From: Escherichia phage vB_KppS-Ant
Sequence record: LR881103
Length of the DNA: 16,548 nucleotides
Reading direction: 5' to 3' (one strand)
The translations under genes and the position numbers were made by a program. Below the pieces are notes generated by a model. That model saw only the letters and a list, made by a program, of their open reading frames with translations. It had not been told where the DNA came from and did no database searches. This document shows positions 23-16,366 of this stretch, piece by piece. The first letter of the stretch is position 1, and every line of letters starts with the position of its first letter.

Positions 23-379
23 ATGGCAAGACCACCCAAACCGCCCGCTTACCTTGATGAAATCGCGGCGCAGCAGTGGAAAGCAAAGGCGAAGCAACTG
101 GCGGAACGCGGTGATCTGACGCCTGCCGACTGGAACAACCTTGAGCTTTATTGCGTCAACTACTCGATGTACCGCAAAGCCGTGAAGGACCTTGCCGCGC
201 GGGGATTCAGCATTGTGAACAGCCAGGGTGGTGAGAGTCGCAACCCGGCCCTGAGCGCAAAGGCTGATGCCGAAAAAATTCTCATAAAAATGTCGTCTCT
301 GCTGGGCTTTGATCCGGTAAGCCGTCGCCGCAACCCGCCTGAAACTGAAGAGGAAGACGAACTTGACCGCATGGAATGA
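23..379 (+). CDS. terS: Phage terminase small subunit (P27-like family)
   Basis: 118 aa; N-terminal PPKPPAYLD...W, central LTPAD...LE.YC and C-terminal NPAL...GFDPVSRRR pattern typical of P27-type small terminases; sits directly upstream of and overlapping the large terminase. Confidence 0.75.
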   Translation: MARPPKPPAYLDEIAAQQWKAKAKQLAERGDLTPADWNNLELYCVNYSMYRKAVKDLAARGFSIVNSQGGESRNPALSAKADAEKILIKMSSLLGFDPVSRRRNPPETEEEDELDRME

Positions 380-2024
380 TTACGCCATCGCCATAAAATC
401 GGGCGAAATTCCGGCCTGTAAGCGGGTAAAACAGGCCGTCGAAAGGTACTTTTCAGACCTGAATGACCCCCGTTACGTGTTCGATACAGCGACCGTAGAG
501 CGGTTTATTGCGTTCTCCCGGCTTTGTCCTCACGTCAAAGGGCCGTTGCGCGGTCAGCCTATCATGCTGGAGCCGTGGCAGCAGTTCGCCTTTGCTAACC
601 TGCTGGGCTTTAAGGTCAGTGCTACGGGGCGCAGGAAGTACAGCAGCGCCTTTATCGAGGTGCCGCGTAAGAATGCCAAATCCACCGTAGCTGCAATGCT
701 GGCTAACTGGTTTCTGGTGATGGAGCAGGGCCAGCAAGACATTTACACGGCGGCGGTGAGCCGGGATCAGGCTCGTATCGTGTTCGACGATGCCCGTCAG
801 ATGTGCCTGCTGTCAAAACCGCTGAAAAAGCGCGTGAATATTCAGGCTCATAAAATGATTTTCCCGAAGAATAACAGCCTGTTAAAGCCGCTGGCGGCGA
901 AAGCGGCCACCATCGAGGGGACGAATCCCAGCCTGGCTATTGTCGATGAGTACCACCTTCACCCGGATAACGGCGTTTACTCCGCACTTGAGCTGGGTAT
1001 GGGGGCACGTCCTGAAGCGGTTTTATTCGCCATCACCACCGCCGGGAGTAACGTTGTTTCTGCCTGCAAGCAGCATTACGACTACTGCTGTCAGATTCTG
1101 GCCGGGGAAGAGAGCAACGATTCGCTGTTTGTTCTGATTTACGAACTGGACGACGAAAGCGAGGTTGATCAGCCTGAAATGTGGATCAAGGCTAACCCGA
1201 ATCTGGATATCTCCGTTGATGCGGCAAAACTGGAGGCCACTATCCAGAAAGCACGGGGCATCCCGTCGCAATGGGTGGAGATGCTGACCAAACGTTTCAA
1301 TATCTGGTGTCAGGGTTCCACACCGTGGATGGGCGCGGGGGCCTGGGACGCCTGCAAACTCGACTATGAAGAAAGCGAGCTGGCCGGAATGGAATGTTAT
1401 GCAGGTCTGGACTTGTCCTCAACCAGCGATATCACCAGTGTAAATTACGCTTTTCCGTTCGACAGGGAGATTAGGTTACTGACAAGGCACTATCTGCCGG
1501 AAGCGACACTTAATAATGTTTCCAATAAAAACCGCGCCATTTACCGCCAGTGGGTGAAAGCAGGCTGGATTCGTACCACTCCCGGCGACTGCATCGATTA
1601 TGACCGCATCCGCGACGATATTCTGCGCGATGCCGAAACATTCAATATCCGTCTGGTGGGCTTCGATACGTGGAACGCCACGCATCTGCGTACCCAACTA
1701 CAGGGGGCGGGCCTTGAGGTAGAGCCGTTCCAGCAAACCTATCTTAAATTCAGCCCGGTAGCGAAATCGTTTGAAGTGTTCGTTAACCGCAAGGTGGTGC
1801 GCCATCGCGGCGATCCGGTACTGGCCTGGGCGATTGGTAACGTGGTGATGGAGTCCGACGCCAACGCCAATATCAAGCCCAACAAGAAGAAATCCTCCAA
1901 CAAGATTGATCCGGCAGTGGCTGCGTTAATGGCGTTCGGCACATTCCAGGCTGAGCATGAGGATTTTGCATTTGATATGAGCGAAAGCCACAAAGATCGC
2001 CTCAGTCATTTTGACGGGGTGTAA
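363..2024 (+). CDS. terL: Phage terminase large subunit (ATPase/nuclease)
   Basis: 553 aa; Walker A-like VPRKNAKST and Walker B-like LAIVDEYH; C-terminal nuclease-like region; TTG start overlapping the terS 3' end with AGGA 8 nt upstream. Confidence 0.85.
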   Translation: MTAWNDYAIAIKSGEIPACKRVKQAVERYFSDLNDPRYVFDTATVERFIAFSRLCPHVKGPLRGQPIMLEPWQQFAFANLLGFKVSATGRRKYSSAFIEVPRKNAKSTVAAMLANWFLVMEQGQQDIYTAAVSRDQARIVFDDARQMCLLSKPLKKRVNIQAHKMIFPKNNSLLKPLAAKAATIEGTNPSLAIVDEYHLHPDNGVYSALELGMGARPEAVLFAITTAGSNVVSACKQHYDYCCQILAGEESNDSLFVLIYELDDESEVDQPEMWIKANPNLDISVDAAKLEATIQKARGIPSQWVEMLTKRFNIWCQGSTPWMGAGAWDACKLDYEESELAGMECYAGLDLSSTSDITSVNYAFPFDREIRLLTRHYLPEATLNNVSNKNRAIYRQWVKAGWIRTTPGDCIDYDRIRDDILRDAETFNIRLVGFDTWNATHLRTQLQGAGLEVEPFQQTYLKFSPVAKSFEVFVNRKVVRHRGDPVLAWAIGNVVMESDANANIKPNKKKSSNKIDPAVAALMAFGTFQAEHEDFAFDMSESHKDRLSHFDGV

Positions 2025-2035
2025 GGAGAAAGATT

Positions 2036-4333
2036 ATGGCAGGTAAATCATTAGGCACTCTCACCATTGACCTGATCGCCAGAACCGGCGGTTTTGTCCA
2101 GGGTATGGATAAAGCCGAACGTTCATCACAAAAATGGCGGGATAACGTTAAAAAAGATGCCGCAGCCGTGGGTTCAGCCCTTGCTGCTGTTGGCACAGCC
2201 GCAGCAGCGGCGGCTATCGGTGTTAGTGCCGCTGGTATTGCACTGGTAAAAAATACCTCAGAGCAGATCACTGAAACTGATCGCTGGGCTAAATCGCTAA
2301 AAATGTCTACTCAGGATTTGCTTTCATGGCAGTTTGCTGCTGAGAAAGCAGGGTTGACCGGGGATAATATTGCTGACATCTTCAAGGATATTAACGATAA
2401 AGTCGGCGATGCTGTCCTGAACAAGTCAGGTGAGGCTGCTCAGGCTCTGGATACTCTCGGGCTTTCAGCTGAGAAACTGGCCCAGCAATCCCCTGATAAG
2501 CAGTTACTGGCTATCAGCTCGGCATTGCAAAAAATCCCCTCTCAGGCCGGGAAAACTAATATCCTCGAAAGCCTGGGGAATGACCTGTCAAAAATGCTGC
2601 CGTTGTTCGACAACAATAACGAGAAGCTGAAGCAGTTTATCCAGCTGTCAAAAGATTTTGGTGTCGCTCCGCCCCAGGAGGATATTGATAACCTGGTTAA
2701 GGTTAATCAGTTTTTCCAGGATATTGAGAGCAGTGCACAGGGGTTAAAGATCGAGATTGCCAGTGGCCTGGCTAAAGTAGACCTCTCACCGATTCAGGAT
2801 GGACTTGATGATATCCGGGATGTGTTTACCGATCCTGCTGTTCTGTCAGGTCTGGCAAAGCTGGTCGGAGGGATGGCGGAACTTGTTGGCTGGATGGGTA
2901 AGCTAAGTTCTGAATCTGCTAATTTTCTCAGCCATATATTTGAAGTGCCTGACAGGTTTAAGGCGGGTGGCTGGTACGAGTTTGAAAAAAATCAGAGATT
3001 AGGAGCAATAGCAGATACGCTTCAATCAGATTTAGGGGGAATAACTAAACCATCTTCAAACTCTGAGTTGCCAATAAATAATAACCTGCTCCCCGGGCAG
3101 AGCAATCAGAAACAAACTCAAAAGCCTGATGCTGAGGCAAAAAAACTTGAAAGTGCCTATAAAGCCGTAGAACAGTCATATTTAAAGCAAATTGCGCTGG
3201 TGGATCAGCTAACCGGGAAAACCAAAGACGCCACTGAAGTAGAAAAACTACATTTCGATTTAGTATCTGGTCGTCTGGTTGGGATAAATAAAGAACAGCA
3301 AATCAGGCTTGAGGGCTTGGCCTCAGAAGTTGATAAATATAACGCGTTGTCAAAATTTCGAGATTTGCAGGATGAGTTATTAACTCCAGAAGAAAAATTA
3401 CTTAAAACGACGAGAGAACGTTTTGAAATATTAAAAGATATTCAGGGAATGAAGGGGATCAGCCCTGATGAATATAAAAAAGCAGCAGAAGCCATATCGA
3501 AAGATTCATTTACAGATATGCCTAAATTTAGTGGTCTTGATCCGATGTTTGGCGGTCAATCTGGAGAGTTAAGAAAAGTTGATGACGCACAGAAAGAACA
3601 GGAAAAATGGTATCAGAATCAGCTCGATTTGCTGGAACAGAACCGTCAGGCACGTTCTGACCTTAATGATGAGTGGGATGCCAGAGAGCTTGAACTGAAG
3701 AAAAAACACCAGGATGAAATGAATAAGCTCGATGAAGCCCGTAATCAGCTGATGTTGAGCAGTGTTGTCGATGGGCTTGGTTCTATGGTGGATTTGACCC
3801 GTACAGCTTTTGGTGAGCAATCAGGAGTATACAAAGCCGCGTTTGCAGTTCAGAAAGCCGCGGCTATTGCTCAGTCTGTTATCGCTATCCAGCAGGGGAT
3901 CGCGATGGCGGCTGCAAACCCTTTCCCGTACAACCTTGCAGCGATGGCCAGCGTAGCCGCTTCTACAGCCGGTATTGTGTCGAACATTGCGGCCGTGGGT
4001 ATGGCTCACGATGGTATTGATGCTGTTCCAGAAACCGGAACATGGCTTCTCCAGAAGGGCGAACGCGTAGTCACGGCGAATACCAGCGCGAAACTGGATG
4101 CGACCCTTAACCGTGTCGCCCAGCAATCCACTTCTGGTAATCAGATTTCCCAGGAATTTAATTTTAACGTTAATGGCGATCCTTCTGATGCTCAGATAGC
4201 CATGATGAAGAAAGCGGCCGCTGACGGTGCCAAGATGGGGTATCAAAAGGCGGTCAATTCAGTAATTACTGGTCAGGGTGATTTGCACAAGGCTCTGATG
4301 ACGAAAACTAATTCAGGCAGAAAAATAGGGTGA
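2036..4333 (+). CDS. Tail tape-measure-like protein (lambda gpH family architecture)
   Basis: 765 aa; N-terminal GTLTIDLIARTGGFVQGM segment followed by an Ala-rich hydrophobic stretch; long central charged Lys/Glu/Gln-rich helical region; C-terminal hydrophobic Ala/Gly-rich block then GIDAVPETGTWLLQKGERVVTANTS, which resembles the conserved C-terminal motif of lambda-family tape-measure proteins; strong RBS (AAGGAG) upstream. Confidence 0.65.
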   Translation: MAGKSLGTLTIDLIARTGGFVQGMDKAERSSQKWRDNVKKDAAAVGSALAAVGTAAAAAAIGVSAAGIALVKNTSEQITETDRWAKSLKMSTQDLLSWQFAAEKAGLTGDNIADIFKDINDKVGDAVLNKSGEAAQALDTLGLSAEKLAQQSPDKQLLAISSALQKIPSQAGKTNILESLGNDLSKMLPLFDNNNEKLKQFIQLSKDFGVAPPQEDIDNLVKVNQFFQDIESSAQGLKIEIASGLAKVDLSPIQDGLDDIRDVFTDPAVLSGLAKLVGGMAELVGWMGKLSSESANFLSHIFEVPDRFKAGGWYEFEKNQRLGAIADTLQSDLGGITKPSSNSELPINNNLLPGQSNQKQTQKPDAEAKKLESAYKAVEQSYLKQIALVDQLTGKTKDATEVEKLHFDLVSGRLVGINKEQQIRLEGLASEVDKYNALSKFRDLQDELLTPEEKLLKTTRERFEILKDIQGMKGISPDEYKKAAEAISKDSFTDMPKFSGLDPMFGGQSGELRKVDDAQKEQEKWYQNQLDLLEQNRQARSDLNDEWDARELELKKKHQDEMNKLDEARNQLMLSSVVDGLGSMVDLTRTAFGEQSGVYKAAFAVQKAAAIAQSVIAIQQGIAMAAANPFPYNLAAMASVAASTAGIVSNIAAVGMAHDGIDAVPETGTWLLQKGERVVTANTSAKLDATLNRVAQQSTSGNQISQEFNFNVNGDPSDAQIAMMKKAAADGAKMGYQKAVNSVITGQGDLHKALMTKTNSGRKIG

Positions 4334-5122: not shown

Positions 5123-6343
5123 ATGGCTGGCGAACTTAACAAACTGAGCGACAGGAAGTTAAAGGGATTACATGGTATCCCGGCCAGTAAGATTGAGTTC
5201 TATGCTGATGGTGCCGGGCTGAGCGCCAAGGTAACTAAAGCTGGTGGTATTAGCTGGGTGTTTACTTACCGACTCGACGGGCAGAAGCTGCATCGTCTTA
5301 CTCTGGGACGATACCCGGATATGAGCCTCAAAGAGGCCCGTTCTTCGCGTGATAAATGCCGCCAATGGCTGGCCTCAGGTAAAGATCCAAAGCACCAGTT
5401 GGCGCTGACCACTCAGGAAACGCTTAAACCGGTCACTGTTAAGGAAGCTATAGAATACTGGATACGCGAATATGCAGAAGAGAACCGCGCGAATGTTGAA
5501 CGGCACAAAGCGGAGCTGCGAAAACACATTTATCCTTATATAGGGAAAATGGCGCTCGCTGACTGTGAAACACGATACTGGCTTGACTGCTTTGACAGGA
5601 TGAAAAAGAAAACTCCAGTCGCCGCAGGTTATGTGTTCCAGATGTGCAAACAAGCCCTGAAATTCTGCCGGGTTCGTCGCTATGCTGTGAGTACCGCGCT
5701 TGAAGATTTAACAATTCCAGATGTCGGTAAAAAACAGGCAAAAAAAGACCGGGTATTAAACGATAAAGAGGCTGGCGATTTATGGGCTGCCATTTCCTCT
5801 GGCACTTGCTTCATGCCTTACTACACCAGGCTACTGACAATCTTAATGGTGTTTGGGTGCCGAACGCAGGAGGCCAGGCTATCAGAGTGGAGTGAATGGG
5901 ATATGGATGCCTGGGTCTGGACAGTTCCCAAAGAGCACAGCAAGGGCGGCGAGAAGATTGTAAGACCTGTGCCGGATGCCATGCGCAAATTCATTGAAAT
6001 ACTGCATGATGAAACGAAACGATCCGGCCTTTTGCTTGGGTCGGTTAAAGGCAGTGAAGCGGTAAGTCAGTGGGGCCGCGGTGTTTATAAAAAGCTGGGG
6101 CATTCTGAACCATGGACACTGCACGATCTAAGACGAACTTTAGCAACGCATATGAATAATATGGGTATAGCACCACACGTTGTCGAACAGTTGTTGGGGC
6201 ACTCAATGCCGGGAGTTATGGCGATTTATAACCGTAGTCTGTACTTGCCTGAGAAACTGGATGCGTTGAATAAATGGTATGACAGACTTGATATTTTATC
6301 AGGTGGATTCACTAACATTGTTTTGTTGAATAGGGCTGAATAA
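5123..6343 (+). CDS. int: Tyrosine site-specific integrase, P4-type (N-terminal arm-binding domain plus C-terminal catalytic domain)
   Basis: 406 aa; N-terminal L.D.K...GL.....G..W.F.YR..G.....LG.YP..SL.EAR...D pattern of P4-like integrases; C-terminal HDLRRT ... LLGH ... Y catalytic signature. Confidence 0.9.
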   Translation: MAGELNKLSDRKLKGLHGIPASKIEFYADGAGLSAKVTKAGGISWVFTYRLDGQKLHRLTLGRYPDMSLKEARSSRDKCRQWLASGKDPKHQLALTTQETLKPVTVKEAIEYWIREYAEENRANVERHKAELRKHIYPYIGKMALADCETRYWLDCFDRMKKKTPVAAGYVFQMCKQALKFCRVRRYAVSTALEDLTIPDVGKKQAKKDRVLNDKEAGDLWAAISSGTCFMPYYTRLLTILMVFGCRTQEARLSEWSEWDMDAWVWTVPKEHSKGGEKIVRPVPDAMRKFIEILHDETKRSGLLLGSVKGSEAVSQWGRGVYKKLGHSEPWTLHDLRRTLATHMNNMGIAPHVVEQLLGHSMPGVMAIYNRSLYLPEKLDALNKWYDRLDILSGGFTNIVLLNRAE

Positions 6344-7583: not shown

Positions 7584-7868
7584 ATGCAAAATATAACCTT
7601 TACCCCGCCAAATCCTGAACAACGCCGCACCCTTTTAGAAGAGTACGGCTTTAAGTTTGATCGCCGAATCCGTGAAGATGAATGCAGCGAGATCACCAGT
7701 CTTTCCCGTTCCAGCCGCTGGAAGATGGAACAGCAGGGGCGCTTCCCTCCGCGCTGTCACTTTGGCCGCAATAGCTGTGCTTGGCTTCTTTCGGATGTGC
7801 TCTGGTGGGTTCGTAATCCGCCAGCAGTAGAGAACGTCAATAACCCATACAGCCGTAAATCTGCTTAA
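7584..7868 (+). CDS. alpA: AlpA-family phage transcriptional regulator (excisionase-like HTH)
   Basis: 94 aa; ...SEITSLSRSSRWKMEQQGRFPPRCHFGRNSCAWLLSDVLWWVRN matches the AlpA-family HTH pattern; GGAGG RBS; position downstream of int as in P4-like and PICI elements. Confidence 0.7.
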   Translation: MQNITFTPPNPEQRRTLLEEYGFKFDRRIREDECSEITSLSRSSRWKMEQQGRFPPRCHFGRNSCAWLLSDVLWWVRNPPAVENVNNPYSRKSA

Positions 7869-7888: not shown

Positions 7889-8581
7889 ATGAAAAAGATT
7901 AATGCCCTCCACGGGCAGGGATTCGCTCACCCTGTAGCCAGCCAGCACGATATTTCAGCGAACCGTAAACAGGTTATTGCCGGTGACTGGTCGCCCATTA
8001 ATCGCGGTGAATTTACGCTTGCCGATCTGGGGTTGCGCCACAACGGTAACGGGCTGGTGTGGCTGCGTTCCGGCGTGTCCGTGCATGAGGCAGACCATGA
8101 TGCAGGGATAAGCGGCAAGGACAAGACCAAAGGAAGGGTTAACGGCCTTCCTTTTGAATTTGTCGGCCAGTGGCAGGAATACCCGACTAAACGCAGCTTT
8201 GCCGTTTCAGTATCTACGGAACTACGGCGCCAGTATTACCCGGACGATGCCGCATTCAGTAAGGCAATGCGTGAGGCTGGTTATGTTCCGGTGCGCACTC
8301 GCAAACTGACCGGAAAGGATGCTCGTTTTTGGCTGTACCGTGTAACGGGCAATGATAAGGGGGTTGTCGCAGCAGAATCCGCGCCACACAAGGCTTGCGC
8401 GCCAGTTGTCCAGACCATATCTAAGCCTCATCCGTGGTTTAAGCGTGTGGCACTCGATGGTAAATGGCAGTACGTCTACGCAGATCACATCCGCTTTCTG
8501 ACTAAAAAGCGTCATCGCGTCGATGGTGTTCGGGTTCAGGGGTATACCGCTGGCGGGCTGAAAGTGGAGGCTATTGTATGA
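7889..8581 (+). CDS. Hypothetical protein (230 aa) between alpA and the replication module
   Basis: Protein-like composition; stop overlaps next potential start (ATGA); function not recognisable from sequence. Confidence 0.55.
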   Translation: MKKINALHGQGFAHPVASQHDISANRKQVIAGDWSPINRGEFTLADLGLRHNGNGLVWLRSGVSVHEADHDAGISGKDKTKGRVNGLPFEFVGQWQEYPTKRSFAVSVSTELRRQYYPDDAAFSKAMREAGYVPVRTRKLTGKDARFWLYRVTGNDKGVVAAESAPHKACAPVVQTISKPHPWFKRVALDGKWQYVYADHIRFLTKKRHRVDGVRVQGYTAGGLKVEAIV

Positions 8582-8593
8582 CAGGCAAAACAA

Positions 8594-8615
8594 AGGCGGC
8601 CATGCCGGGCCGCCT
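8594..8615. other. GC-rich hairpin (8-bp stem, 6-nt loop) right after the 7889..8581 stop; terminator-like for minus-strand readthrough
   Basis: AGGCGGCC-atgccg-GGCCGCCT; the U-tract lies on the minus-strand side (complement of aaaacaaa at 8586..8593). Confidence 0.35.
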
Positions 8616-8923
8616 GAGTCTCAACGCTTTACTGAAACATCGCCAGATTACCAGGCTTGCCGCTGGTGGTCAAACCTTGAGCCAACGAAATCCGTACGCA
8701 CAAATTAACCGCGTACGTTTAACGTACGGACATCGCAATCCATTGAAGGAACTTGATTATAACGAATCGTTAGAATCGGCTGGCAACAAACACGAACAGT
8801 ATTCGGGTTCGCCTGAACATCAACACTGCTTAGGTTCAGAGGTTCCGACGAATAACGTAGAGAGCTGCGAAGATAACCAACCCTCTTTAAGAGGTGAGCC
8901 TCTGCACAACGCATTAAGAGTTG

Positions 8924-8950
8924 CGCAAAACAACCCCTCTTTAAGAGGGG
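8924..8950 (-). terminator. Rho-independent terminator for the minus-strand RHH gene
   Basis: Minus-strand reading: CCCCTCTT-a-AAGAGGGG followed by ttgtttt, about 35 nt downstream of the 8982 stop; a second similar palindrome CCTCTTTAAGAGG lies at 8881..8894. Confidence 0.55.
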
Positions 8951-8981
8951 CAGTTCACAGCATTACGGAGAGTAACCCTGT

Positions 8982-9185
8982 TCAGCTTTCAGGTTCCGAT
9001 CTGGCTTTCTTGCGCTGCTCAGATTTGAGTTTGCGCCCGCAGGCATCCAGAACCCACGCAGAGAAATTAGCACCGGCGTTATCTGCTTTCTCTCGCTCTA
9101 CGCTGGCGTCAATCTCTTCAATAAGTTCGTGCGGAAATCGTATCTTTTTCTGCGCTGATTTAGCGTTTACTGCCTTAGTAGCCAT
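8982..9185 (-). CDS. Small ribbon-helix-helix-like DNA-binding protein (67 aa), candidate repressor
   Basis: KIRFPHELIEEIDASV...NFSAWVLDACGRKL fits a beta-strand / helix / helix RHH (Arc/CopG-like) layout; strong RBS AGGAGG 4 nt before ATG; own terminator; divergent from the replication operon promoter. Confidence 0.55.
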   Translation of the reverse strand: MATKAVNAKSAQKKIRFPHELIEEIDASVEREKADNAGANFSAWVLDACGRKLKSEQRKKARSEPES

Positions 9186-9198
9186 TTACCCTCCTGCG

Positions 9199-9271
9199 TA
9201 TAGTGAGGGTACACCATATCAGAAAAATAGCTTGACGTGTACCCCCACCGAAAATATAGTGGGGGTGCACC
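9199..9271 (+). promoter_or_regulatory. Near-consensus sigma70 promoter (TTGACG-17-TATAGT) overlapped by three operator-like 12-mers GTG(A/G)GGGT(A/G)CAC
   Basis: -35 TTGACG 9232..9237, 17-nt spacer, -10 TATAGT 9255..9260; 12-mers at 9203..9214 (+), 9237..9248 (inverted) and 9259..9270 (+); 17-bp direct repeat tatagtgagggtacacc / tatagtgggggtgcacc. Confidence 0.55.
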
Positions 9272-9363
9272 TTGAGGTTGAAGATACTCAAGATACAGCG
9301 AAGCCCGGCAGTGTTACCAGCACTAACCGGGCCTCTGACCACAACGTAACTGAGGCTTACATC

Positions 9364-9552
9364 ATGGCTTGTATACAGCATACCCAAACTCGCCCCAAAT
9401 ATCAGTATCGTTTTCTTGCGCTGAGCGCCATCGGGCGCAACGTCATTCACATCACCGCTACCACTGAGCGCGAAGCCCGTGAGCAATCACCGGATGGATG
9501 CGTGATGGTATTCGCTGGTCGTCTGCCAGTTCGGGAGGGGCACCATGCGTGA
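9364..9552 (+). CDS. Possible small leader protein (about 62 aa), 3' portion of the long ORF 8578..9552
   Basis: ATG at 9364 with GAGG 8 nt upstream, downstream of the 9232..9260 promoter; sequence MACIQHTQTRPKYQYRFLALSAIGRNVIHITATTEREAREQ... looks more protein-like than the upstream part of the frame. Confidence 0.3.
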   Translation: MACIQHTQTRPKYQYRFLALSAIGRNVIHITATTEREAREQSPDGCVMVFAGRLPVREGHHA

Positions 9553-9739: not shown

Positions 9740-9954
9740 GACAGGTTCCTTTTGAAGTCCTGATGCACGCTGAAAATGCCCTTTCTGAAAGCGAAGGAGC
9801 CTATGAGGTTCTCAGCATGTGGCTAGACAGTATTCCTGAAAGCGAGGAGTTCCACGGTGAAGCGTGCAAGGTAAGCGCAATCATGTCGCTGCTGCATAAA
9901 TCTATCGGCGAGCTGGTGAAAGCGCGGGAGGCTTACAGTGAAAAACGCGCCTAA
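9736..9954 (+). CDS. Hypothetical small acidic protein (72 aa)
   Basis: ATGA overlap with the upstream ORF; Glu-rich; overlaps the helicase start. Confidence 0.45.
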   Translation: MRQVPFEVLMHAENALSESEGAYEVLSMWLDSIPESEEFHGEACKVSAIMSLLHKSIGELVKAREAYSEKRA

Positions 9955-11689
9955 TGTGAAAACCCTCCCGCGCGACAAAATGGAGGAGGCCATCATCTTT
10001 GCTGGAACGGGAGCATGGAAAGCCGCTCAGGATTACCAGAAAGGGAAGGGCGAGCATGGAGACGATGTTCCGCCTGTGGTTCTGGATCACACCCAACTGG
10101 CGGAATTACCACACCTGCGCATTGTTGATAAAGGCCGTCGATTTGCCCGTGTCTGTCAGGCCGGGCTTATCGAGCAAAACCAAATCAGCATGATTGCAAA
10201 TAAGTTGTGTGAGGCTGGCGTTACCAATGCTGAGTTTATCAACGAACAAGGCGAGAAAGAGGACTGGACGCCATTGATGAAACGTCTGGAAGACGAGCCC
10301 CTTATGGTGACTACGAGGGGAAGTGCTACGCCAGCGCTTAACCAGATGGGAGCCAGCCAGCGCGGGGAAGTTCTGCTTGCTCATTACAATGGCAATCTGG
10401 CGATCCATGCTGATTCCGACACGGTTCATCATTACAACGGCGTGGTGTGGGTTCCGCTTTCGGATAAAGAGCTGCAGCGAGAAATGGCGCAGATTTTTAT
10501 TGATTCCGAAGTCGCCTATTCGCAGAACGCGATTAAATCCGCTGTCGATACAATGAAGCTGGGCCTCCCGGTAATGGGTAACACAGCCCGTAACCTGATT
10601 GGTTTCAGCAACGGGGTTTTTGATACCCGGTTAGGCCAATTTCGACCGCATGATAAAAAGGACTGGCTTATCGTTGCGAGCGAATTGCCATTCAGCGAAC
10701 CAGCAGAAGGTGAAACTCTGGCAACCCATGCGCCTAACTTCTGGAAATGGCTCCGCCGCTCTGTGGCGGATAATGACCGAAAAGCAGACCGCGTACTGTC
10801 TGCGCTGTTTATGGTGCTGGCGAACCGGTACGACTGGCAGCTGTTTCTTGAGGTAACGGGGCCGGGCGGAAGTGGTAAAAGTGTCATGGCTGAGATCTGC
10901 ACGATGCTGGCGGGCAAGGCCAATACGGTATCGGCGAGCATGGCGGCGCTGGAGAACCCAAGGGAAAGGGCGCTGGTAGTTGGCTATTCGCTGATTATCA
11001 TGCCGGATATGACCCGGTACGCTGGCGACGGCGCAGGGATTAAAGCTATCACTGGCGGGGATAAGGTGGCTATCGACCCAAAACACAAAGCGCCATATTC
11101 AACCCGTATCCCGGCGGTGGTGCTGGCCGTCAATAACAATGCTATGACGTTCAGTGACCGCAGCGGCGGTATTTCAAGGCGACGGGTGATTTTCAACTTC
11201 ACCGAAGTAGTGCCGGAAAACGAACGCGATCCGATGCTGGCCGAGAAGATTGAAGGAGAGCTTGCGGTAATCATCCGGCATCTGCTTGTGCGCTTTTCCA
11301 GCCAGAACGAAGCCAAACAGCTTTTGCATGAGCAGCAGAAATCAGAAGAAGCGCTGGCCATCAAACGTGAAGGGGATTCACTGGTGGACTTTTGCGGATA
11401 CCTGATGGCTTCGGTGGTTTGTGATGGAATGCTGATTGGTAATGCCGAGATCGTGCCATTCAGCCCGCGCCGTTATCTGTATCACGCTTATCTGGCTTAC
11501 ATGCGGGCCAATGGTCTTAGCAAGCCTGTATCGTTAATGCGGTTCGGTACGGATATGCCAGGCGCAATGGCTGAATATGGCAAGGAGTACCAGAAGCGCA
11601 AAACTAAAAATGGCATAAGATCGAACGTCACCCTGCATGATGATTCAGAAGACTGGATGCCAATGTGTACCGATACAACAAAAGAATAA
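9938..11689 (+). CDS. Replication protein: P4-alpha / D5-family SF3 helicase (phage/plasmid primase C-terminal type), probable origin-binding initiator
   Basis: 583 aa; Walker A GPGGSGKS about 300 aa in; D5_N-like region upstream (HYNGVVWVP); GTG start with GGGAGG RBS; iteron cluster immediately downstream. Confidence 0.8.
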   Translation: MKNAPNVKTLPRDKMEEAIIFAGTGAWKAAQDYQKGKGEHGDDVPPVVLDHTQLAELPHLRIVDKGRRFARVCQAGLIEQNQISMIANKLCEAGVTNAEFINEQGEKEDWTPLMKRLEDEPLMVTTRGSATPALNQMGASQRGEVLLAHYNGNLAIHADSDTVHHYNGVVWVPLSDKELQREMAQIFIDSEVAYSQNAIKSAVDTMKLGLPVMGNTARNLIGFSNGVFDTRLGQFRPHDKKDWLIVASELPFSEPAEGETLATHAPNFWKWLRRSVADNDRKADRVLSALFMVLANRYDWQLFLEVTGPGGSGKSVMAEICTMLAGKANTVSASMAALENPRERALVVGYSLIIMPDMTRYAGDGAGIKAITGGDKVAIDPKHKAPYSTRIPAVVLAVNNNAMTFSDRSGGISRRRVIFNFTEVVPENERDPMLAEKIEGELAVIIRHLLVRFSSQNEAKQLLHEQQKSEEALAIKREGDSLVDFCGYLMASVVCDGMLIGNAEIVPFSPRRYLYHAYLAYMRANGLSKPVSLMRFGTDMPGAMAEYGKEYQKRKTKNGIRSNVTLHDDSEDWMPMCTDTTKE

Positions 11690-14063: not shown

Positions 14064-15299
14064 ATGTGGAATATCTGGCCGTTTGGCCGTAAGTCTGAAC
14101 CCTCTGAGCAGCGCAGCATGACCATTGATGAATTTCTGGCGATGGCAGGGATTCCAAATACCGGATCAGGCGAGTATGTGTCTGCGGGTACTGCGGAATC
14201 TCTGCCGGCGGTAATGAACGCCGTATCAGTTATCAGTGAGGCGGTGGCAACAATGCCCTGCTACCTCTACCGCGTGCGCAACGATAACGGGCGTGAGGCG
14301 CGGGAATGGCTGAGCAATCACCCGGTGGATTTTCTGCTGAATGAGCAGCCGAATATTTGCCAGACGCCTTACCAGTTCAAGCGCACGATGATGCGCCACT
14401 GTCTGCTGAACGGTAACGCCTATGCGGTGATCCAGTGGGGCCGCGACGGCCAGCCACAATCCCTGCATCCGTATGCGCCGGGGGCGGTTGTTCCTGAGCG
14501 TATCGGCGAGCATAAGTACAAATACACCATCACTGAGCCGTTTACCGGGGCTGTACGTACCTATTTGCAGGAAGAGATTCTGCACCTGCGTTATTCCACC
14601 GATGACGGTTTTCTGGGGCGCTCGCCGATCACCATTTGCCGGGAGGCGCTGGGGTTAGGTCTGGCCCAACAGCGCCACGGTGCCAGCATTATGAAAGATG
14701 GCATGATGGCGGCGGGCGTCATTACGGCTAAAGAATGGCTGGATAGCGTTAAAGGGAAAAGTGCACTTGAGGCGCTGGAGCGCTACAAAGGTGCAAGGAA
14801 TGCCGGGAAAACGCCGATCCTTGAAGGGGGGATGGACTACAAACAGCTTGGCATGAGCAATCAGGATGCCGAGTGGCTGGCCTCCCGCCGTTTCACCATT
14901 GAAGATATTGCCCGCATGTTCAACGTGTCGCCCATCTTCCTGCAGGAATACAGCAACAGCACCTACAGCAACTTCAGCGAGGCAAGCCGCGCTTTTCTCA
15001 CCATGACTATGCGCCCGTGGCTGGCGAACTTCGAGCAGCAGATTAAATCCGCGCTGCTGGTGGCTTCTCCTGTGCCGGGTATTCGTTATCAGGTGGAATT
15101 TGATTCCGCTGACCTTCTCCGCGCTACTCCTACCGAACGCTACGCAACCTATGAGCGCGGCATCAAGAACGGGATCATGAATCCTAACGAGGCTCGCGAG
15201 CGTGAGGGCATGGCACCGCGTGAAGGCGGTGACGAGTTCAGCCAGGCATGGAAGCAGGAAGTCACTGTGAGCAAGGGCAATAAGGATGGTGACGAATGA
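14064..15299 (+). CDS. Portal protein, HK97 family
   Basis: 411 aa; AVMNAVSVISEAVATMP and ARMFNVSPIFL segments typical of HK97-type portals. Confidence 0.8.
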   Translation: MWNIWPFGRKSEPSEQRSMTIDEFLAMAGIPNTGSGEYVSAGTAESLPAVMNAVSVISEAVATMPCYLYRVRNDNGREAREWLSNHPVDFLLNEQPNICQTPYQFKRTMMRHCLLNGNAYAVIQWGRDGQPQSLHPYAPGAVVPERIGEHKYKYTITEPFTGAVRTYLQEEILHLRYSTDDGFLGRSPITICREALGLGLAQQRHGASIMKDGMMAAGVITAKEWLDSVKGKSALEALERYKGARNAGKTPILEGGMDYKQLGMSNQDAEWLASRRFTIEDIARMFNVSPIFLQEYSNSTYSNFSEASRAFLTMTMRPWLANFEQQIKSALLVASPVPGIRYQVEFDSADLLRATPTERYATYERGIKNGIMNPNEAREREGMAPREGGDEFSQAWKQEVTVSKGNKDGDE

Positions 15300-15637
15300 A
15301 AGCCGGAAAGATGAAACGCCGCGTCACTATTCAGCAGTTCGTCAGTCACCAGGACCCGAACACGGGGTCAGTCACTAAAGAATGGCGCGATGTTGCCACC
15401 GTTTGGGGGGAGATAGACAGCGTAAGCGGGCGGGAGCTTGTAGCCGCCCAGGCTGAACAGTCAGAGATGACAGTCAGAATCTGGATTCGCTATCGCAAAG
15501 GCGTTACCACCAAAAACAGACTGACCTGCACAGAAAAAGGAATGCCTGTAACCATCTACGACATCAAAGCTGTTCTGCCTGATGCAGATCGTACCCGCCT
15601 TGAAATTATGTGCACCGGAGGGCTGACCAGTGGCTGA
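15296..15637 (+). CDS. Head-tail adaptor / head closure protein (SPP1 gp16-like head-tail joining family)
   Basis: 113 aa; RRVTIQ...D..G....W..V..VWGEI....GRE........MTVRIWIRYR pattern; ATGA overlap with the portal stop. Confidence 0.65.
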   Translation: MKAGKMKRRVTIQQFVSHQDPNTGSVTKEWRDVATVWGEIDSVSGRELVAAQAEQSEMTVRIWIRYRKGVTTKNRLTCTEKGMPVTIYDIKAVLPDADRTRLEIMCTGGLTSG

Positions 15638-15923
15638 AACTATTGAACTTGCTGAAGCAAAACTTCACTGCCGTATTGATGGCGATGATGAAGATTTGCT
15701 CATTCAGGCTTACATCGATGCGGCTCTGGAGGTTTGCCAGAAACATATCGGCAAGCGGTTTGATAGTGGGCTGGAGCTTACCCCGGCTATCAAAATCGGT
15801 TGCCTGATGTACGTCTCTCAGTTGTACGAGTACCGCACGATGATTAGCGATGTGGAGGCGAAAGAGGTTCCTCTTGCTGTCTCAGCGCTGTGGTCTGTCT
15901 ATCGTGACGTGGGGGTGTACTGA
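15630..15923 (+). CDS. gp6-like head-tail connector protein
   Basis: 97 aa; LAEAKLHCRIDGDDEDLLIQAYIDAA...; GTG start overlapping the upstream gene. Confidence 0.65.
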   Translation: MAETIELAEAKLHCRIDGDDEDLLIQAYIDAALEVCQKHIGKRFDSGLELTPAIKIGCLMYVSQLYEYRTMISDVEAKEVPLAVSALWSVYRDVGVY

Positions 15924-16366
15924 TGCCGTGGCAACCCTTACGCCGTTGCACTGAGCCGGGATGCAACAAGCGCGTGAAGTCTGGTAAATGCGATGAGCAT
16001 AAACGGGAGGTGTGGCGGGCACAGGATGCCAGACGCGGCCACCGTCGCGCCCGTGGTTACTCAGCAGCATGGGAGAAGTATCGCGCCCAGTATCTAAAAC
16101 GCTATCCCCTGTGCGCTGAGTGCCAGAAGCAGGGCCTCTTCGTTCCTGCAAAGATTGTCGATCACATCATCCCTATCGACGGCGGTGATGATGTTCTGTT
16201 CTGGCCTGAGTGGAATCACCAGCCGTTATGCCAGACGCATCATAACCAGAAGACCACACAGCAAGACCCTATCACCAAAGCCAATCGCAAAGCGGGGATG
16301 TACCACGAGCAGGAAGAGCGGGCAGCACAGCGCAATAACTGGATGTATGAGGTTGATCATGAATGA
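15923..16366 (+). CDS. HNH endonuclease (terminase-associated type)
   Basis: 147 aa; Cys pairs CTEPGC and CAECQ plus DHIIPIDGGDD...NHQPLCQTHHNQK HNH signature. Confidence 0.85.
   Translation: MPWQPLRRCTEPGCNKRVKSGKCDEHKREVWRAQDARRGHRRARGYSAAWEKYRAQYLKRYPLCAECQKQGLFVPAKIVDHIIPIDGGDDVLFWPEWNHQPLCQTHHNQKTTQQDPITKANRKAGMYHEQEERAAQRNNWMYEVDHE

Follow-up and report, generated by a model that had tools for sequence, protein, structure and literature searches.

Forti et al. reportedly found in 1999 that when the eta gene of satellite phage P4 is translated, transcripts starting at the late promoter PLL escape Rho-dependent termination at timm. In phages P1 and P7, the immI operon consists of the c4 antisense RNA, icd, and ant. 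The nested eta and kil genes of P4, together with the opposition between eta translation and Rho termination of PLL transcripts at timm, have been summarized elsewhere (PMC10111431). Rho normally ends untranslated and antisense transcripts (see PMC11551753). In Gram-negative phage-inducible chromosomal islands (PICIs) and capsid-forming PICIs (cf-PICIs), int and alpA are followed by a rightward operon (PMC6092414; bioRxiv 10.1101/2022.09.08.507074), and AlpA is the helper-activated inducer (PMC6092414).

Here, we describe a related arrangement in sequence record LR881103. The stretch analyzed (the window) is 16,548 nucleotides long, and the region of interest spans positions 8582-8980. A first-pass annotation had described this region as structured and probably noncoding DNA lying under an implausible 324-amino-acid (aa) open reading frame (ORF). 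We favor a different reading, with a probability of about 0.6: the region would combine leftward terminators on the minus strand with a translated "bridge" ORF on the plus strand, in the manner of P4 eta. We did not find this arrangement described in the searchable literature.

A cf-PICI-type satellite with an unannotated gap

Judged by its genes, the window is a capsid-forming PICI-type phage satellite. Every member of the cf-PICI gene set was found (int, alpA, primase, capsid, protease, portal, connector, HNH, and TerS/TerL), and the gene order is that of an E. coli relative, L001. The integrase gene lies at 5123-6343. An alpA-family regulator (7584..7868, plus strand; Pfam Phage_AlpA, E 5e-10) opens the rightward operon and is followed by a 230-aa gene of unassigned function (7889..8581, plus strand), whose place is occupied in relatives by Rha/AntA-type genes and whose stop overlaps the start of the bridge ORF. 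Further along are a D5-type primase (9938-11689) and genes for capsid, protease, portal, head completion, connector, HNH, TerS, and TerL. Set against the PICI/cf-PICI layout, the window shares int, alpA, the D5-type primase, capsid, protease, portal, connector, HNH, TerS, and TerL, and it has a leftward gene for a small DNA-binding-type protein with a divergent promoter and inverted repeats.

Related satellites were present in 25 of 5,426 complete E. coli genomes; DNA and protein searches of a phage database gave no match. In all relatives inspected, the upstream gene and the leftward gene are separated by a gap of 350-530 bp that carries no annotation. The genes flanking the gap are exchanged among families: the upstream one is Rha, AntA, or unknown, and the downstream one is HicB-like, YlcI-like, or other. 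The core of the gap is 81-94% identical among related satellites. An origin of replication or a cos or pac site was considered for the region and set aside, as neither an iteron array nor an AT-rich block was found; the cf-PICI papers place no cos site here.

Judged by its two ends (23-4333 and 15296-16366), the window as a whole looks like a complete cf-PICI that is circularly permuted or tandem, with HNH (15923-16366) at its right end and TerS (23-379), TerL (363-2024), and a 765-aa protein at its left end, ahead of the integrase. A PHROG "tail length tape measure" family is matched by the 765-aa protein (E 2e-176), an unexpected find in a satellite that is said to steal only tails. The Rfam int-alpA RNA (RF02996) occurs in one related satellite (L104, 64-131) and is absent from the window.

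Comparison with P4 eta/kil and P1/P7 immI

The last 62 codons of the bridge ORF form an Icd/Kil-like gene (9364..9552, plus strand); residues 275-318 of the ORF match NCBIfam phage_ICD_like with an E value of 1.4e-15, and BLASTP aligns the Icd-like end with the C terminus of P4 Eta (Kil) at 27% identity (E 7e-4). In P4 (NC_001609), the ORF that follows vis/ORF88 begins at the stop of vis and has Kil as its last part. In both elements, a long ORF is coupled to the stop of the gene before it, on the vis/alpA side, extends over an internal early promoter and an immunity determinant, ends in 62-65 codons of a Kil/Icd-like protein, and is followed by the primase operon. The promoter within the bridge ORF (9232-9260) has the position of P4's PLE.

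The differences lie mainly in what the long ORF contains. P4 eta includes the C4 (CI) RNA (74.9 bits) and the isrK (seqA) RNA (60.8 bits), whereas the window has neither. A search of the whole window against Rfam 15 at the gathering threshold found no match, and a search of 8400-9450 at E values up to 10 found chance-level matches only, with E above 3; hence, we reject C4/isrK-type immunity for this element. Both RNAs were missing from 19 of 20 related loci, the exception being the one P4-type locus. P4 Eta matches Pfam Phage_ASH (PF10554; E 3.8e-23), but neither the ORF of the window nor that of relative L002 has a Pfam match. Unlike in P4, the frame runs antisense through a gene for a YlcI-like protein and through reversed terminators, and the 230-aa gene intervenes between alpA and the ORF. 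Homology between the two long ORFs is detectable in the Kil part alone. Since C4, isrK, and Phage_ASH are all missing from it, we treat the bridge ORF as an analogue of P4 eta, with homology demonstrated only in the Kil part. The Phage_ASH match on P4 Eta (aa 22-146; L067 8168-8767, minus strand) coincides with the stretch that encodes the C4 and isrK RNAs, and Phage_ASH may therefore be conserved for its RNA genes rather than for protein.

The locus also resembles P1/P7 immI in that a gene for a small Icd-type cell division inhibitor directly follows the immunity determinant in one transcription unit. In contrast to immI, it has neither a C4-type RNA nor ant, and the immunity determinant would be a protein gene on the opposite strand.

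The plus-strand frame is kept open in related loci

The bridge ORF comprises 324 codons (8578..9552, plus strand), the first 134 of which cover the region 8582-8980. The position given for it in the first-pass annotation is correct, as is the observation that it overlaps the whole of a minus-strand gene (8982-9185). It contains no in-frame stops, versus 23 and 19 in the other two plus-strand frames; in dinucleotide shuffles, the probability of finding no stop was 0.0016 for 8578-8979 and 0.019 for the promoter segment 9187-9363.

Searching IMG/VR with a 17-mer from the conserved core retrieved 62 loci, 38 of which are homologous to the LR881103 locus. The bridge frame was open for 800-1300 nt in all 38, while the other frames closed within 20-60 nt. 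With the Icd-like protein as the query, we collected 80 distinct loci (50-97% identity). These loci are mosaics of common modules and hence not independent samples; the Icd frame was open for at least 450 nt upstream in 70 of the 80, with a median of 858 nt versus 9 and 6 nt for the other frames. These 70 include 55 of the 62 Icd-like loci that lack the 17-mer. In 5 of the 10 exceptions, the long frame ends at an ATGA overlap with the Icd start or stops 13-22 nt short of the Icd ATG, and in most of the others a long out-of-frame ORF runs into the Icd start. Five clusters of N-terminal sequences that have nearly no 11-mers in common are each open (summed log10 P = -14.4). Among distinct, well-flanked indels, 23 of 25 have lengths divisible by 3.

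The start of the frame is likewise conserved. A Shine-Dalgarno (SD) sequence, GGAGG (8567..8571, plus strand), lies 6 nt (CTATTG) ahead of the start (GT-ATGA), and the ATG at 8578 overlaps the stop of the 230-aa gene (ATGA). In 67 of 86 distinct frames, an in-frame start lies no more than 17 nt from the stop of an upstream gene with at least 80 codons; an (A/G)TGA overlap is present at 41 of these 67 starts, and an SD-like, GGAG-type motif at 65. The plus-strand frame is apparently under selection to stay open, and we infer that it is translated from ATG 8578. The label "implausible" thus does not hold for a frame that is free of stops in essentially all relatives and whose indels preserve it; nor does the ORF look like an accident of noncoding DNA, given its conserved SD, its start overlapping the upstream stop, and its end in an Icd/Kil-like gene as in P4 eta.

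Leftward terminators on the minus strand

Compared with shuffled sequence, both strands of the region fold more stably, and the minus-strand RNA (-153.4 kcal/mol; z = -5.95) does so far more than the plus strand (z = -3.44). RNAalifold found consensus structures on both strands (-55 for minus, -40 for plus), a comparison that is not decisive because the sequences are too similar. A scan of 8300-9500 picked up six terminator-like sites against 1.4 expected; every one is on the minus strand, and five lie within 8582-8980. We re-implemented the rule used on the window and applied it to relatives, from the ORF start to the stop of the antisense gene. Across 76 distinct loci (40 kb), the minus strand had 176 terminator-like sites and the plus strand 25, compared with 20 and 13, respectively, in shuffles of these loci. 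The sites comprise about 60 different hairpin sequences, and 75 of 81 loci have at least one. The fold z scores and the 176:25 ratio bear out the earlier view that the region is structured and that its hairpins face leftward.

A GC hairpin noted previously at 8594..8615 is indeed present and is a good, strong leftward intrinsic terminator by sequence, with an 8-bp GC stem (arms 8594-8601/8608-8615) and the tail TTTGTTTTG. On the plus strand, it encodes K-T-K-A-A-M-P-G-R. Its position is conserved, and the invariant TTTGTTTT tail reads K-T-K on the plus strand. For covariation, the hairpin set was picked by the tail motif and then by eye; in this set, 98.8% of cells were paired and four of seven pairs had changed on both sides, versus at most 65% paired in slid controls. 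Six G-U cells are valid only on minus-strand RNA, being A-C mismatches on plus-strand RNA.

Nearest to the antisense gene is a terminator at 8933..8951 (minus strand), the first leftward one past the stop codon, with the stem GCCCCTCT/AGAGGGGT and the tail TGTTTTGCGC (TTGTTTTG); variants with another stem and an unchanged tail occur among relatives. It overlaps the second of two CCTCTTTAAGAGG palindromes (8882-8894 and 8936-8948; 0.01 expected by chance). Both palindromes had been proposed to act as minus-strand terminators, which suits the first, whose tail is weak, less well than the second (8933-8951); only the latter and the 8594-8615 hairpin look like good intrinsic terminators. They belong to a duplication of AAC(C/A)A(A/C)CCCTCTTTAAGAGG (8875..8948), whose two copies are spaced at 54 nt (18 codons); only one copy of this 54-nt repeat unit is present in relatives L003, L011, and L056.

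The three CGTACG hexamers reported earlier were found at 8693, 8712, and 8723; they lie within 36 nt and are the only copies in the 16.5-kb window. The inverted repeat around them is also real (8686-8698/8723-8735). The conserved hairpin in this part, CGTACGTT-T-AACGTACG (8712..8728, minus strand), has an invariant core, occurs in about 20 relatives, and resembles a leftward terminator only weakly, its tail being weak. A further hairpin, TAACG-aat-CGTTA (8755..8777), reads TCGCG-aaa-CGCGA in relatives, which amounts to two compensatory pair changes.

The conserved block ends exactly at the stop codon of the antisense gene, whatever the family of that gene. In-frame insertions in relatives are terminator cassettes; a 54-nt insert in L002, for example, contains CAAGACG-tgaattc-CGTCTTG followed by ATTTTTTTT on the minus strand. 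The sites at 8594-8615 and 8933-8951 thus share with intrinsic terminators in general a GC-rich stem-loop and a T-run, with a covarying stem and an invariant tail. They differ in sitting reversed inside the open reading frame of the other strand and in their turnover as in-frame cassettes of 27 and 54 nt. These observations support the view that the hairpins would be leftward terminators for the gene of the YlcI-like putative repressor.

The antisense gene and its divergent promoter

The antisense gene inside the bridge ORF (8982..9185, minus strand) encodes a small DNA-binding-type protein of the YlcI/YnfO family (DUF3950), which we infer to be a candidate repressor. A PDB sequence search with this protein found no match, and its ribbon-helix-helix fold is therefore kept as putative. 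Antisense genes in relatives' frames belong to two families, YlcI-like (19 loci) and HicB/Arc-like (15 loci).

The third codon positions of the antisense gene coincide with those of the bridge ORF in the window and in 78 of 84 relatives. When codons were permuted, the probability of a stop-free opposite frame was 0.30-0.64 in this phase versus 0-0.14 in the others. The phase with coinciding third positions is the only one that makes a stop-free opposite frame likely.

A sigma-70-like promoter, TTGACG-17-TATAGT (9232..9260, plus strand), lies inside the bridge ORF, surrounded by three copies of a 12-nt inverted repeat, GTGAGGGTACAC (9203-9214), GTGTACCCCCAC (9237-9248), and GTGGGGGTGCAC (9259-9270). 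The YlcI-like protein probably uses these repeats as operators. Whether Gram-negative PICIs have a repressor has been called unclear (PMC6092414); our analysis points to a candidate repressor and immunity switch in these elements.

Constraint on the encoded amino acid sequence

Within 8578-8979, variable sites are distributed 26/26/21 over codon positions 1/2/3, and distinct alternative codons include 18 synonymous and 63 nonsynonymous ones, which is about the neutral expectation. The corresponding distributions are 5/11/17 for the Icd part and 5/10/19 for the part antisense to the YlcI-like gene. Pfam, NCBIfam, and PHROG searches with the N-terminal 134 aa found no family match. A search among 5.8 billion gave no more than 52 matching protein clusters, all of them unnamed and from Klebsiella, Enterobacter, or Salmonella. 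AlphaFold2, given a 29-sequence alignment, returned one short helix (pLDDT 50, pTM 0.13). In amino acid constraint, family matches, and predicted fold, the product indeed does not look like a protein. The first-pass annotation had called the translation a low-complexity sequence rich in Ser, Leu, and Arg; a bias exists but is only mild, with A, S, and L at about 10% each. Apparently, the open frame and its translation are selected and the protein sequence is not.

At the nucleotide level, conservation of the N-terminal block is about equal to that of the Icd gene, and no other module is shared more widely. The conservation of 8668-8980 exceeds what is needed by a model in which the frame must only stay open, and the excess may come from the terminators or from another nucleic acid function.

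The 17-mer GAACAGTATTCGGGTTC (8794..8810, plus strand; EQYSGS) used in the search above has exact matches in genuine Bro-N domain genes, with identity spanning about 23 nt. This 23-nt island, AACACGAACAGTATTCGGGTTCG (8788-8811; H-E-Q-Y-S-G-S), is the same in bridge ORFs and in many otherwise unrelated genuine Bro-N genes, and was seen in L005, L010, L012, L020, and others; it perhaps marks a junction formed by recombination in the Bro network, whose members swap domains. After the 17-mer (8811-8845, compared with L001, L011, and L044) come two alternative cassettes of equal length, GCCTGAACATCAACACTGCTTAGGTTCAG and ATGGCAAAACAACGTTAAACGTGGTTTAG, each with its own inverted repeat; they are swapped among relatives with the frame unchanged.

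Alternative explanations

The 324-aa product could be a functional protein, either a disordered N-terminal extension that alters the activity, toxicity, or localization of Icd/Kil or an Eta-like regulator. An in-frame fusion to Icd in 70 of 80 loci goes beyond mere coupling, and peptide motifs such as RLTYG and N-x-P-S-L-R-G recur. However, these motifs fall on conserved DNA hairpins, substitutions are neutral (26/26/21 by codon position; 18 synonymous versus 63 nonsynonymous), and part of the ORF sequence is a shadow of the antisense gene. The frame varies in length from 200 to 536 codons and includes unrelated sequence clusters, at least five loci have the frame coupled to Icd rather than fused, and the pLDDT is 50. 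We consider a functional 324-aa product unlikely. Another idea, that the ORF derives from a Bro-N antirepressor gene now in decay and is still open only because this decay is recent, accounts for the 23-nt island (K/E-H-E-Q-Y-S-G-S), which is identical in genuine Bro-N genes, and Bro-network genes are found in this zone in PICIs (PMC10111431). Yet identity to Bro-N genes drops to the random level beyond these 23 nt (8 aa), a Pfam search of the ORF gave no Bro-N match, and many unrelated versions of the frame are all open with frame-preserving indels, which is unlike a decaying pseudogene. This origin is very improbable.

A further view is that the region is purely noncoding, with an accidental ORF, and that the space between the terminators houses a leftward small RNA or an element that binds protein. 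It fits the strong fold, most pronounced on the minus strand, the leftward-pointing hairpins, and a product with neither amino acid constraint nor a predicted fold; PGAP annotates nothing here in any E. coli relative, and the palindromes ACGTT-N-AACGT and CTCTT-T-AAGAG might bind a dimeric protein. It does not account for a frame that is open in all relatives, with in-frame indels and a conserved SD and overlapping start. The 54-nt space between the palindromes, where the first-pass annotation had placed a possible small RNA, turns out to be the repeat unit that is missing in L003, L011, and L056; because the unit is dispensable in these relatives, an essential small RNA between the palindromes is unlikely. 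There is no Rfam match, a scan of 8300-9500 found no minus-strand promoter-like site, and neither the first CGTACG nor the outer inverted repeat is conserved. We regard a purely noncoding region as improbable, somewhat more so than a functional protein. A leftward 3′-untranslated RNA may nevertheless have a role of its own.

Proposed mechanism and its generality

Under the preferred reading, in which leftward terminators underlie a translated bridge ORF, the minus strand of the region would be the 3′ trailer of the YlcI-like repressor gene, with a series of leftward intrinsic terminators: one at 8933-8951, weaker ones at 8882-8894 and 8712-8728, and a last strong one at 8594-8615. These would halt transcription of the repressor gene ahead of the alpA-side genes. 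In the quiescent state, the leftward gene would be transcribed from the divergent promoter region, and its RNA would end at the hairpins between 8951 and 8594. Helper infection would turn on alpA and send rightward transcription into the bridge ORF. Ribosomes coupled from the upstream gene would then cross the reversed hairpins, whose plus-strand form lacks a U-tail, and go on over the repressor gene and the promoter. The translated transcript would not be bare for Rho and would reach icd, the primase, and the packaging genes.

Rho is put forward here as the factor countered by bridge ORF translation purely by analogy with P4; the plus strand at 8950-9250 has no more than a mild C-over-G bias, which as a rut site signal is only weakly suggestive. 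The role of P4's CI RNA would, on the best reading, be taken here by the antisense repressor gene. If so, a single position can house an immunity module made of RNA, as in P4, or one made of protein, as in LR881103.

The eta arrangement of P4 is known; in the loci compared here, its variant with an antisense candidate repressor gene is by sequence general across Icd-carrying enterobacterial satellites. We see about an even chance that such satellites (cf-PICIs, PICIs, and P4-like elements) share a drifting, translation-selected "ribosome bridge" that is laid over an antisense repressor and its terminators and escapes Rho. If this is true, the bridge runs antisense over the repressor gene in the sole phase that tolerates dual coding, and helper-induced transcription overrides the immunity region through Rho escape. 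The 1999 observation on P4 would then grow into a design rule that holds generally in a large group of phage satellites: an ORF whose sole job is to be translated, allowing transcription of an induced operon to pass backwards through the operon's own repressor gene. The bridge ORF would also explain the conserved annotation gap of 400-500 bp that pipelines leave. For annotation, a caution follows: an Icd-like gene is normally the tail of a far longer frame. As a clean natural system, the locus would lend itself to work on dual-strand coding constraints and on how Rho controls antisense transcription.

Other minus-strand ORFs

Two minus-strand ORFs in the region were rejected as genes. One is a small ORF at 8705-8914 (69 aa), whose starts are inconsistent. 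The other, beginning MLWTAPLKKG... in relatives, likewise has inconsistent starts and is closed in LR881103 (ATG CTG TGA). Some relatives have extra in-frame insertions that contain antisense hydrophobic ORFs of 50-51 aa downstream of the repressor gene (L003, 1752-1904, minus strand, and L018). These ORFs, MNWLLHTLPGRILIALIILWILYQ... and MIKKLICAGLIILVIFLFIRSC..., may be cargo genes for small membrane proteins or lipoproteins.
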